NCBI GenBank assembly: GCA_023231475.1
Contig: JALJEE010001505.1
Span: forward strand, 1-45,847
Length of the DNA: 45,847 bases
Direction of reading: 5' to 3'
DNA from: Seison nebaliae
Lineage: Eukaryota
In this document: one piece after another, positions 762 to 44,517 of the stretch
Layout of the letters: every line of letters starts with the position of its first letter
Position numbering within the stretch: the stretch's first letter is position 1
Program-made: the position numbers and the translations under genes
The notes under the pieces: model-generated
What the model was told of the DNA's origin: nothing
What the model saw: only the letters and a program-made list of their open reading frames with translations
Databases searched by the model: none

Positions 762-1122
762 CTATGAACGGTTCTTTCTTTTTCTGATTTCTTCTAAAAT
801 ATCCTTTCTTATGCAACTTGGGAAATCACCATAAAACATATTGGCACAAATTCGATCATGTGGACATAAAACATTCTGAGAAAAATAGAAACAGAATTCG
901 TATTATTTCTAAATGACAAGAATTAACTGCACATGGATCAGTGAGACATTGGCAAATTCGACAGAAATTAATTGGTGAACGTTGTAACCCAAATGGACAT
1001 CGGAGTTCACATGTTGCTATTTGGGTGTTGTTGCATTCCATTAATTTATCTATTAGGTTGATATTACATCGAATGATAGATAAATAGAAGGAAAGAAATA
1101 TCAATAATTTCATTATTATCAT
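762..1122 (-). CDS. Small secreted cysteine-rich protein (102 aa): signal peptide, antistasin-like domain, follistatin-N-like C-x4-C-x5-C module, basic tail
   Basis: Exons 1122-928 and 875-762, 52-nt intron GTTAAT...CTCAG. Spliced protein: MIIMKLLIFLSFYLSIIRCNINLIDKLMECNNTQIATCELRCPFGLQRSPINFCRICQCLTDPCA|NVLCPHDRICANMFYGDFPSCIRKDILEEIRKRKNRS*. The C-x7-C-x3-CPFG-x8-C-x2-C-x-C spacing matches the antistasin pattern, and DPCANVLCPHDRIC resembles FOLN. Confidence 0.75.
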
Positions 1123-4100
1123 TTCCGATCAGTTAAAATTATAATTCTTTTTTTCATTTCCTGATTATACTGTTTAAAGCAAATATAAACAACTGGTGAT
1201 AATGTGATAAATATTGATTTTATGTGTCATAGAATAGGAAGAATTCTAAATCGATTAATTTTAAATTTTAAAGGACATGGAAATGTTTAAGGTTTTTAAA
1301 TCAAATTTTCCTTCGAAAATTGAGACTTGGTGGCAGAACTGTAATAGAATGCTATTAGATTTATGATTTTATTTTCAACTGCTTAACAATTAATAGAATA
1401 ACATTTATCGAAATTATTTAATGGAATTTTTGTTTGGAAATAAACATGTCGATCTTATTAATTTATTCGATGTTCTTTAGCATATTATGGAAAGGTAAAT
1501 TGAATAATTAAAATGGCAAGGTACAACATCTATGCTTTAAGAAAAATTTCTGACTAAATGAAAATGAAAATTTTTTGTTCACTCTGTGATGAACATTTGG
1601 TTCATCTAAATAATTAAGTATTGTATAATTATTATATGACAAATGAAATTATTAAATTGTGAAAATTTATTAAGTTAAGTTTGTTAATTACTTTTCAAAA
1701 AGTTTGGTTAGTGTACAAGTAATGATTCTACTCCTTGGTGTATTGTTTGATACGTAATAGGATACTTTCTTTTTTACTAGGCCTACTTTATTCATCCTCA
1801 TCGAAATTCGTTCCGGCTTATTTATCTAAAAGTTGTGGGAAAAGGAAGAACAAAGTCAAAAAGGAGAAGTATGATAATCTGATTGAAGTCATAATATGAA
1901 AAGAAAAAATGTGATGAGTTGTCCACGATTTGTGATGAAAAGATTGGCGATAGAAATCTGCGTTTAGTGAGATTTCAAATCTATTTATTTAGCAAGCGAG
2001 CATTAAAGTCTACGTACAGGAAAAATATAAAACAAATAATCGTTAAACAAAAACGGAACATAAAGGAAATATCGAAGTTAAGTTGTTTGCTTAATTTTCG
2101 ATCACGATAAAGAATCATGATTTTCTATTCATGATATAAAAGACATTGTTGAGAATAATAGATGCCGAAGAGAAAGAGAAAGAAAATGTTTAATTAATTT
2201 CTCTTCATTCAAAAAGTAGCCATCGTCACTAAATGTGCGAGTGGACAATTCAATCAAAGTATAACTAACATGACGATTTCCTTCTAGCCTCCTAAACATT
2301 CATCATTCATCTTCGATTTAGAGAAGAATGTCTATTGAATTCTCCTTTCTTCATGTTCACCCGACCAACCTTGTTTATTTGGGAAAGATGAAATTAATTG
2401 CATTCTCATGACATTCGACGACTGTTTACCTCGTACAAAATATCAGCTGGCAGGTAAACGAAAATAAATAAATAAATATGGACGAACAATACCAGAATAG
2501 TTTCCATTAAATTCCACTACCGATTATCACATCTGCAATCTTTCTCGTCACAAATTATTTTGTTGGAACGAAATTTGTTGGAGAATAATAGAATGTTGAC
2601 CTGCTGCCTTAATCCTTGATGAATTGAGTGAACGACCATTGTGAACCATCAGAGAATTGTTGAGTCTTTTTTGTCAATTACAATTAGATCCGAATTGTGT
2701 CTCTCGAATTCTACTCGATTGATATAAAGAAAATATGATTAAGGTGATAATTATCGACCAGCCGATAATATACATTTCCAGTTCTTTCTATAATTATCGA
2801 TCGTTTTTCTCTTAGATGAATTTTTGCTCTTTGTCATTCTTGTCAATTTGGTTCCTGCTGGAAAATGTTGTTCCCTTTTCAAATTGTCTTTCCTTCTCAA
2901 ATTAAATAAAATAAATAATGAAAATGTTAATTCCGGATATGTATCTAAACAGCAAGAGCAGTGGACGGAAATTTTCATGAATCATTAACAATATGCCGAC
3001 GTCAATTCAAGTGCTTCTCTACATTTTTATCTTTTGTGATAAGTGTTAAAATATACAGAAATTGTTGGTCATTTCCTTTTCTTCGGTCGATTTTCACAAA
3101 CTTTTCAATTTCGAACTAATTTCGAATGATATATCGTTTCTCCATTTCGAACGAATGAATAAGTGGATTTTCTTTTTTTTAAGTAGTTGAGCCTTCTGCT
3201 TTATCGAAAGGGAATAATATCGAAGACGAAAGTATTTCAATGACGAAAGTCTCTCAAGTATTTTCTCGAATAAGTTATTTCTTCGAAGTTTATCTAGTTT
3301 ATTTGCGGTTAATAAAAATGAGAAAGAATAACAAAATAACATTATCAAAATGATTATGATATTGATAATAAGAATTCTTTTCATCGATATGGGACATCGT
3401 TTAGTAGTTTTCGAAAGAAAAAAAGTTCCAATTAGTTAGAATTGTTTCGACGAAGAACTGTTAGGGGAGAGACGTACGAATTGGCCCCCACATTCCAAAA
3501 CTTCAGTAAATTTAATCTATTGCGAACCGGTAATACAATATCGATTGTGTCCAATATTATTCAGAATTCAATCACATTTTGAATTAGTTGTTGCATCCAA
3601 TTCATGTGCGATTATATTCGTCCTACATAACAATTCGAATGAATTCGTCTATTATTCCGAATTACTTGTTATTCTTTATATCGAATACACTGTCACAATT
3701 GAGTGATACTTGAACTCCAGTGAAAGAAAAGAAAAAATATCCGTTGCAATTATGACATCTTCAGGAATATCTTGATCATTTTGAAGTTATCCTTAACCTC
3801 CTCCCGACAAGTGAGTGAGGACCCTCTTTATTTCGTCAAATAAGTATACGTCTATACTTTCCATTCGTATCTTAATTTGATTGAATGGATGATTGGTTGA
3901 AGCGAAACATTTCTTTCATCGTCCATCTAATTATCTTGTCGTAGAGATGATTGTTCGAAAGAATATGAAACTCAATTTGAAAATTAGGAAGATTTTCATC
4001 GCTACATCCGTCTACTATGTTTGATATTCATTTTGTAATGTTTAATGGAGAAATAGTCTTCTTTATTCGAAAATCTACGGGAAGATGTATTAGAAGAATT

Positions 4101-42635: not shown

Positions 42636-43111
42636 ATCTCGTTATTAATTAATTTATAATCAACTTAAAAATTTATCGTCTGTAAATTTTAATGAAAAGT
42701 TTAATAAAAATTTTCTATGGAATTTGATGGAAAACAAACATAAATGTCATTGTGTTATGGAAAGATTTATTTATGACGAATTTATTAGAATATTCTAACT
42801 AATATAAAATAAAAATTTCGTTTGTTTATTTAATAACCATTACAATGATCGTTCATTTAAATAAGTAATCGATAAGAATTTTAGAAACTAAAAATTTGAA
42901 ACCATAAATTTCACCATCTTCTGATGAAAACAAATAGGGATGAATGGAGAAGAGGAAGATAAAGATTCTAATATATGCACTGTCCTTCAACTTTACGTAA
43001 TGGATGACAGATGGTAATATTAGTGGAAGAATATTGTAATTTGATCAGTTTAATTTATTAGTAATATTTCACTTCTCTCATACTCTCGTGGGAGCTGGAG
43101 CTGCAGTGATT

Positions 43112-44517
43112 ATGGAAGATAAATTAGAAAGTTTGAAGCGCAACGGAGTCATTGTTGGAGATAAGACAGACAAAGAGTTTTATACGGTGAATGTCGATAC
43201 CGTTTCATTTACCATTCTACGACGATATCAGAATGTCCAATGTATCGGCAAAGGAGCACAAGGAGTTGTCGTGTTAGTTTCGGAAGGAAATTAACTGATG
43301 AATTTTAAATTTGAATTTGTTTAGGAAAGCGACTGATGTGTTGACAGGCCAAGATGTTGCTATAAAGAAGTTGTTACAAACACTTGATAAGGAGGCAAAT
43401 GCTAAACGTGCTTATCGTGAATTAGCAATCATTAGTACTTGTACCCACAAAAATGTGGTGACATTATTGAATGCGTTCACTCCTCAAACGAGTGAAAATG
43501 AAATGAGAGATGTTTATCTAGTGATGGAATTGATCGATGCCAATTTGTCACAAGTTGACAATCAGAAATTGTCTCACGAACAATATTCTTATCTTCTCTA
43601 TCAATTACTTTGTGGCATTAATCATTTACATGCTGCAGGAATTATTCATAGAGTTAAATCAATGTTCTTCTCTTATTTCTTTAAAAATAAATTCATCACA
43701 ATAGGATCTCAAACCAACTAACATCGCTATTACTAAAGATTGTTCTTTGAAATTACTCGATTTCGGTTTAGCGAGAACAATGCACGAAACCGTTCTATTA
43801 ACACCCTACGTCGTTACACGATATTATAGAGCACCAGAAGTGATCGTAGGAATGCCTTATAGTAAAAATGTAGATATCTGGTCAGTCGGTTGCATTTTCG
43901 CGGAGAAATTATTAGGAAAAATTTTATTTGCTGGTGATGATCGTTTAGTCTTTTCTCTCAAACACATCAATTCTTTTTCGTTTAGATATCGATCAATGGA
44001 AAGTGATTTCATCTATTCTCGGAAGTCCTGACGAAGATTTCTTATCAAAATTATCACCTGAAGCACGACGATTTATCAAATCGTTAGGAGAGAAAAAACG
44101 TTTATATTTTCCTTATTTCAAATTATTCTCATTGAACTTGTTTATGTTAGAAACTGATTTCAATATACTCTTCCCTGATAGCTGTTTTCCGACAGCTAAA
44201 GAAAATTTCACAGCAGATGCGGCAAGAGATTTTTTGAAGAAATCGTTGAGTATCGATCCAGCTAAACGGATGAGTGTTAAAGAAGCCATACAACATCCTT
44301 ATGTTAATTGTTGGTATGAAGACGAAGAATTCAATGCTCAACCTGCTATAGTTAGGAATCATTTCATGTTCATTGTAACTTCTTTATCTATCTAAAGGCT
44401 TATGATGTGCCCAATATTGACAACGCTCAATATCCTTTATCCAAATGGAGACATATGATATTTGAAATGATCACCAACATAGAGAACAGAGAAACAAATA
44501 GTATGTTAGAAGGATGA
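43112..44517 (+). CDS. JNK: c-Jun N-terminal kinase (stress-activated MAPK), divergent, ~386 aa
   Basis: Exons 43112-43272, 43325-43652, 43705-43942, 43986-44099, 44151-44350, 44398-44517 (1161 nt, in frame). Motifs [35 protein letters not shown], and a TPY activation motif in [15 protein letters not shown]. The start codon is the first in-frame ATG. Confidence 0.93.

Follow-up and report, generated by a model that had tools for sequence, protein, structure and literature searches.

Animal introns usually begin GTA or GTG, and the purine at donor position +3 is the most constant donor position after the GT. The canonical 5' end of the U1 small nuclear RNA (snRNA) is AUACUUACCUG. A case in which donors were recoded together with the matching snRNA is on record for an intron-poor amoeba, a setting in which few sites needed to change. 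Here we analyze one whole contig of the seisonid rotifer Seison nebaliae (JALJEE010001505.1, 45,847 nucleotides (nt), hereafter the window; the public assembly, GCA_023231475.1, comprises 44 Mb), in which almost all predicted introns begin GTT. A preliminary description of this DNA listed 26 introns in five genes and claimed that every one starts GTT; counts out of 26 below refer to that set. All Seison donor counts are from this contig, and its introns are predicted from the DNA and from deposited gene models that are themselves predictions.

Entamoeba is the only lineage with U at +3 that we found in the print literature within reach of the search. It shares with Seison GT-AG introns, U at +3 in nearly all donors, and +5G/+6U in the normal register, and differs in being an intron-poor amoeba with a homogeneous GUUUGU(U) motif (88–90% GUUUGU), +4U, and a co-evolved U1 (10.1101/2022.06.08.495308). 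Seison, in contrast, is an intron-rich animal (5–11 introns in four genes here) in which A is commonest at +4 and donors are degenerate except at +1 to +3; neither the prevailing +4U nor the homogeneous GUUUGU of Entamoeba was seen (T at +4 in 5/26, GTTTGT in 2/26). By analogy, Seison donors may work like the recoded Entamoeba donor but with a different motif. The animal Fritillaria borealis also combines a genome-wide 5' splice-site change with a U2-type spliceosome, but it changed its terminal dinucleotides and has a canonical U1 5' end (10.1101/2025.08.15.670264), whereas Seison keeps GT-AG and has changed +3 only, apparently including that of ancestral introns. The two also meet on the U6 side: Fritillaria has lost the N6-methyladenosine (m6A) of U6, and METTL16 is scored missing by BUSCO in Seison. 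The +4 A/U switches of Saccharomycotina (METTL16, SNRNP27K) offer another lineage-wide donor change with a candidate link to METTL16 loss, although there it is +4 that switches, and the pairing boxes of U1 and U6 are invariant (PMC10581693), while Seison has mostly A at +4 and a changed +3. The donor features that accompany METTL16 loss, a +4U preference and a strong AG|GU, were absent from the window (+4 A in 16/26, AG| in 2/26). Canonical U2-type donors, represented here by an RtcB gene of a bdelloid rotifer (locus L009), share with Seison short introns, a weak exon side, and YAG acceptors with a pyrimidine tract, and differ in having A at +3 in 7/7 donors vs T in 26/26.

All 26 listed coordinates read GTT on their stated or implied strand. 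We mapped four deposited proteins to the DNA (JNK, a large gene, and two isoforms of VPS54) and obtained exactly one GT/GC..AG solution per junction. These models use all 20 listed donors of the three genes and add five more, and 23 of their 25 distinct donors are GTT; the claim that every intron starts GTT therefore stands for the listed set and is too strong as a 100% rule. The union with UBE2H (five introns) and an antistasin-like gene (one), for which no deposited model was retrieved and which were counted from the preliminary junctions, gives 29/31 GTT (95% interval 0.79–0.99) and no GTC.

The five introns of JNK (SNEBB_004693, 43112..44517, + strand) lie at 43273–43324, 43653–43704, 43943–43985, 44100–44150, and 44351–44397, all with GTT donors; reconstruction from these donors yields the deposited 386-residue protein, and exon 2 matches SNEBB_004693 of S. 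nebaliae at 100%. UBE2H (38092..39107, − strand) has introns at 38977–38930, 38854–38809, 38768–38719, 38665–38601, and 38405–38286, again all GTT. In VPS54 (SNEBB_004690, 33076..36844, − strand) the donors at 35227, 35056, 34587, 34439, 34083, 33914, 33784, and 33532 are all GTT, and the intron from 35056 spans 284 nt in the main isoform. The listed donors of these three genes, joined to the next suitable AG, gave open spliced frames. The large gene (SNEBB_004689, 7014..32791, + strand; 2196 residues, no Pfam family) has 11 introns in its deposited model, with GTT donors at 7327, 9436, 10690, 10848, 13253, 22928, 26516, 29864, 30055, and 31208 and a GTG donor at 32551; those at 7327, 10690, 31208, and 32551 are the four that the model adds. 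The weakest intron of the set is that of the antistasin-like gene, a small secreted cysteine-rich gene (876..927, − strand; 52 nt, donor GTTAAT), where the Pfam Antistasin match falls below the cut-off (E = 0.014) and the unspliced frame is open to 856.

Both exceptions to GTT can be left in the transcript at no cost to the reading frame. When 30 introns were examined for necessity, 24 shifted the frame or held a stop, and all 24/24 were GTT; the six optional introns comprised four GTT, one GTA, and one GTG. The GTA donor (GTATTT at 34931; intron 34773..34931, − strand) belongs to a stop-free in-frame intron that follows a 75-nt cassette exon (34932–35006) in the longer VPS54 isoform. If that exon is real, its alternative use may stem from this weak donor of canonical type. 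The GTG donor (GTGTTC) opens a deposited intron of 72 nt in the large gene (32551..32622, + strand), which is likewise stop-free and in frame and removes a hydrophobic segment; this intron may well be a wrong call in the deposited model.

The signal in the 26 listed donors is concentrated at +1 to +3. Almost none lies on the exon side (G at −1 in 5/26, AG| in 2/26). The purine at +3 that characterizes U2-type GURAGU donors is absent, with T in 26/26 listed donors and 23/25 of those in deposited models. Position +4 is A in 16, C in 5, T in 5, and never G; +5 is G in 10 and A in 10; +6 is T in 20. Most introns are short (modal length 42–70 nt), 20 spanning 42–120 nt and the majority 42–53 nt, but five introns of the large gene exceed 1 kb: 9436..10454 (GTTTGT, 1019 nt), 10848..13027 (GTTAGT, 2180 nt), 13253..20689 (GTTCGT, 7437 nt), 22928..25915 (GTTTGT, 2988 nt), and 26516..29527 (GTTAGT, 3012 nt), all on the + strand. 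The pair +5G+6T occurs in 5/5 introns of at least 1 kb vs 3/21 shorter ones (p = 0.0009). Because all five long introns carry it, GUUNGU appears to be the full target, in the normal register, while short introns get by on little more than GUU. The donor consensus is GUUNNU, with GUUAGU as the ideal and +4 to +6 weak in short introns. The preliminary description had proposed a GUUAGU/GUUAAU code for the lineage; its +3U is supported by junctions fixed by homology, by the deposited models, and by the bdelloid control, and the wider consensus is the part that we revise.

The 3' splice signal is also weak. All introns run GT..AG with a pyrimidine-rich tract as in U2-type introns, acceptor position −3 is C in 10, T in 11, and A in 5 of 26 (the five AAG acceptors include 38809, 33487, and 44397), and the branch point showed no fixed motif or distance, with a YTRAY-type match in 10/25 introns. 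Minor-spliceosome (U12-type) introns were considered and rejected, as no donor fits RTATCCTT; ZMAT5 and ZCRB1 are BUSCO-missing in S. nebaliae (PMC12256650 supplement).

To compare donors across species, metagenome contigs were scanned with bdelloid RtcB, which returned 80 loci, and the 12 with extra bases in the gene were aligned for introns. Two near-identical bdelloid loci (L009 and L011, with 490–491 residues identical to Adineta proteins) were counted once. Bdelloid RtcB had 7/7 GTA donors, and the 11 distinct loci together had 17 GTA, 7 GTG, and 0/24 GTT (one 36-nt call is doubtful). The contrast between Seison and this one bdelloid gene is 29/31 vs 0/7 GTT (Fisher p = 3e-6). Outside +3 the bdelloid donors share the weak design (G at −1 in 2/7, +4 and +5 mixed), so the Seison set stands apart at a single letter, the difference expected if one base pair had been exchanged. 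The scan contained one distinct bdelloid locus and no clear monogonont or acanthocephalan locus. Chaining by frame alone in two neighboring bdelloid genes gave a GTA candidate at 9/9 junctions; these are ambiguous and were not counted.

Several of the Seison introns appear old. Among 118 JNK homologues, three proteins start and one deletion ends at the position of JNK intron 1, two insertions lie at that of intron 2, and 27 proteins skip a block that ends at intron 3; introns 4 and 5 had no exact breakpoint match in this set. UBE2H exon sizes of 75, 40, and 53 nt apparently correspond to those of the human gene. JNK introns 1–3 thus sit at breakpoints shared with other animals, and ancestral donors probably changed where they stood instead of giving way to newly gained introns.

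Selection bias in the choice of junctions was said to be limited, and this was borne out. With the antistasin-like gene set aside, 17/25 introns lack a rival GTA or GTG donor that would keep the frame with the same acceptor and lies no more than 60 nt away. The other eight have one, including VPS54 33784 and 33532, and the GTGCGA noted 6 nt upstream of the latter is indeed an in-frame alternative. Against a profile built from 83 of 119 JNK homologues (those of 340–480 residues), each of the five JNK junctions scored highest among 2–13 open-frame GT/GC..AG alternatives, with margins of 35, 31, 14, 33, and 4 bits for introns 1–5, the rival at intron 5 being a GC donor. UBE2H is colinear with its human counterpart (exon 1 covers residues 1–43, exon 3 residues 69–82, and exon 4 starts at 83), which leaves no slack at introns 1–3, and at introns 4 and 5 no GTA or GTG donor competes in frame. 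All ten JNK and UBE2H junctions are thus fixed by homology or lack a usable rival, as the preliminary description had maintained for most of them.

Three further explanations are unlikely. Drift under relaxed recognition, with a free +3 filled by T-rich intron composition, has in its favor a T content of 51.5% in the sense strand of short introns, T-rich positions at +6 to +9, and an unconstrained exon side. It fails on numbers: the chance of 26/26 GTT is 3e-8 even at the T content of short introns (0.515), T occupies +7, +8, and +9 in only 15, 14, and 16 of 26 donors, and the background probability of T after GT is 0.39 in the window (both strands) and 0.405 within introns. Among intron-like, T-rich GT..AG stretches other than the known introns, GTT opens 28 of 75 (37%), under a filter that recovered only 14 of 20 known donors when tried on them; GTT is thus not favored by composition. 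GTA is used by a bdelloid gene that is just as AT-rich and by a mite gene of 29% GC. We therefore reject drift, which we regard as very unlikely. An artefact or local effect, in which the preliminary description and the gene finder both picked junctions for GTT or the contig is unusual, gains from the restriction to one contig, the predicted status of the models, and the eight introns with a rival donor. It is nonetheless quite unlikely given the ten constrained JNK and UBE2H junctions and the agreement of five unrelated genes on both strands; in addition, contigs of three DNA runs cover the donors at 29000–45000, and their long pieces match the window letter for letter. These contigs behave as DNA and show no joint at any listed intron, which bears on splicing in neither direction. 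The preliminary description had called the splice code shifted, and one could imagine recognition one base into the intron (GUU-N-N-GU), to which donors such as GTTTAG and GTTAGG, with G at +6-type positions (G at +6 in 3/26), lend some color. The register is normal, however: GT falls at +6,+7 in 1/26 donors vs +5,+6 in 8/26, and all five long introns are in the normal register. The change is a substitution at +3, and a shifted register (G+6, U+7) is rejected as extremely unlikely. The GTT donor pattern of this contig is genuine: it far exceeds chance and, within the comparisons made, is specific to the lineage.

Position +3 faces U1 pseudouridine 6 (Psi6), which allows A or G (PMC1779574). 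By analogy with Entamoeba, where +3U donors coexist with a changed U1 (ACAAAC) and an unchanged U6 ACAGA box (10.1101/2022.06.08.495308), the major spliceosome of Seison may well read GUU donors through a U1 in which the (pseudo)uridine at position 6 is replaced by adenosine, an idea we hold with about even confidence. A U1 5' end of ACUAAC would exchange the Psi6:A+3 pair for an isosteric A6:U+3 pair in the normal register, and since adenosine has no wobble partner, only U would be tolerated at +3. Once the donor passes to U6, an unchanged ACAGA box would pair with +3U through a G.U wobble, as proposed for Entamoeba. Short introns would probably be defined across the intron by length and U-richness, GUU supplying most of the 5' signal, and conversion in place would probably have involved a stage at which two U1 variants coexisted or proofreading was relaxed, against a T-rich intron background. 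In favor of the A6 U1, the long-intron target GUUNGU is the complement of ACUAAC with a loose +4. The gain in pairing with A6 (from 5.5 to 6.5 pairs) follows from the way this U1 was defined and carries no weight as evidence. No U1, U6, or other snRNA was found in the window by Rfam, ARAGORN, and short U1/U6 motif look-ups.

Several observations weigh against a changed U1. Atypical donors go with a canonical U1 in most lineages that have them, namely yeasts, Giardia, Trichomonas, Thecamonas, and Micromonas, and Fritillaria kept its U1 5' end while losing U6 m6A (10.1101/2025.08.15.670264). Many short-intron donors would make only 3–5 of 11 pairs even with an A6 U1, so U1 pairing may matter little. 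One deposited VPS54 isoform has a GTA donor and the large-gene model a GTG donor, and the absence of METTL16 from the S. nebaliae BUSCO set points to the U6 side (PMC12256650 supplement). In the chief alternative, a tentative but serious one, U1 is canonical or of little importance and it is the U6/Prp8/Prp28 step that imposes the +3U rule. Once U6 m6A was lost, a +3 G.U wobble (or an A-U pair, if the G of ACAGAGA became A) would stabilize the U6/5' splice-site helix, and altered proofreading would admit such donors. The other 24 of the 25 rotifer and acanthocephalan genomes contain METTL16, in fragmented form in one case (PMC12256650 supplement). In yeast, +3 faces U6 G50; the U6 mutant G50A pairs with A3U, whose splicing is also improved by prp28-E404K (PMC3632134). 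Fritillaria supplies a precedent for altered donors with unchanged U1 and no U6 m6A, and in Seison +3 is near-invariant while −1 and +5, the G-C pairs of U1, are degenerate, as expected for a contact in the catalytic core. On the other hand, known METTL16 losses favor +4 A to U or AG|GU, and Seison has +4 A in 16/26, T in 5/26, and AG| in 2/26. The BUSCO absence carries little weight in a genome that lacks 356 BUSCO genes, 76 of them specifically, and SNRNP27 and PRP8 are Complete there (PMC12256650 supplement); the ACAGA box is invariant in 240 fungal and outgroup genomes. The same BUSCO table also scores SNRNP40, splicing factor 45, and LSm2 as Missing and contains no U1 small nuclear ribonucleoprotein protein (PMC12256650), and none of six spliceosome terms occurs in the supplements of PMC8351084.

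Whether U1 (ACUAAC) or even the U6 ACAGAGA box has changed, we lean slightly towards a major spliceosome recoded at the RNA level, which would have forced tens of thousands of ancestral GTA/GTG donors to GTT and would make Seison the first such case among animals and among intron-rich genomes. The switch seems to have reached ancestral introns of an intron-rich animal with canonical bdelloid relatives. A long-standing question, how the spliceosome and its signals can evolve in concert if thousands of sites have to switch at once, is now directly testable, as is whether +3 is read mainly by U1 or by U6/Prp8/Prp28. If RNA-level recoding is true, canonical animal donors should be poorly spliced in Seison, and likewise Seison donors in other animals. 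A gene finder with parameters from other animals would mis-score Seison donors, which may inflate the gene loss reported for the lineage. No report of GTT donors in Seison, rotifers, or any other animal was found; most subscription literature, including the annotation paper of this genome (10.1007/s10750-023-05268-6), lay outside the search, so a prior mention is possible.

Other features of the window were also recorded. JNK (43112–44517, +) has diverged strongly, its exon 2 standing at about 60% to other animals, yet it retains the TPY activation motif. The large gene has helical repeats near 29500–30600 with a weak Spectrin_Anc-1 match (E = 0.14), a hydrophobic segment near 32550–32620, and a short tail with a proline pair, features that may indicate a nesprin/KASH-like protein. 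Tandem repeats of 36–39 nt in its last exon (32240–32430, +) encode EEISD..N.S units. RtcB (41112–42635, +) is intronless amid intron-rich genes, vs seven introns in the bdelloid RtcB (L009), and could have arisen by whole-gene intron loss or as a retrocopy. At the contig end, a reverse-transcriptase fragment (45033–45847, −; RVT_1, E = 4e-5, in two frames) is a degraded retroelement. Low-depth contigs in two DNA runs differ by ~13–15% in coding sequence (36376–36547, 41468–41611, 35958–36100) and represent a second, diverged genotype.

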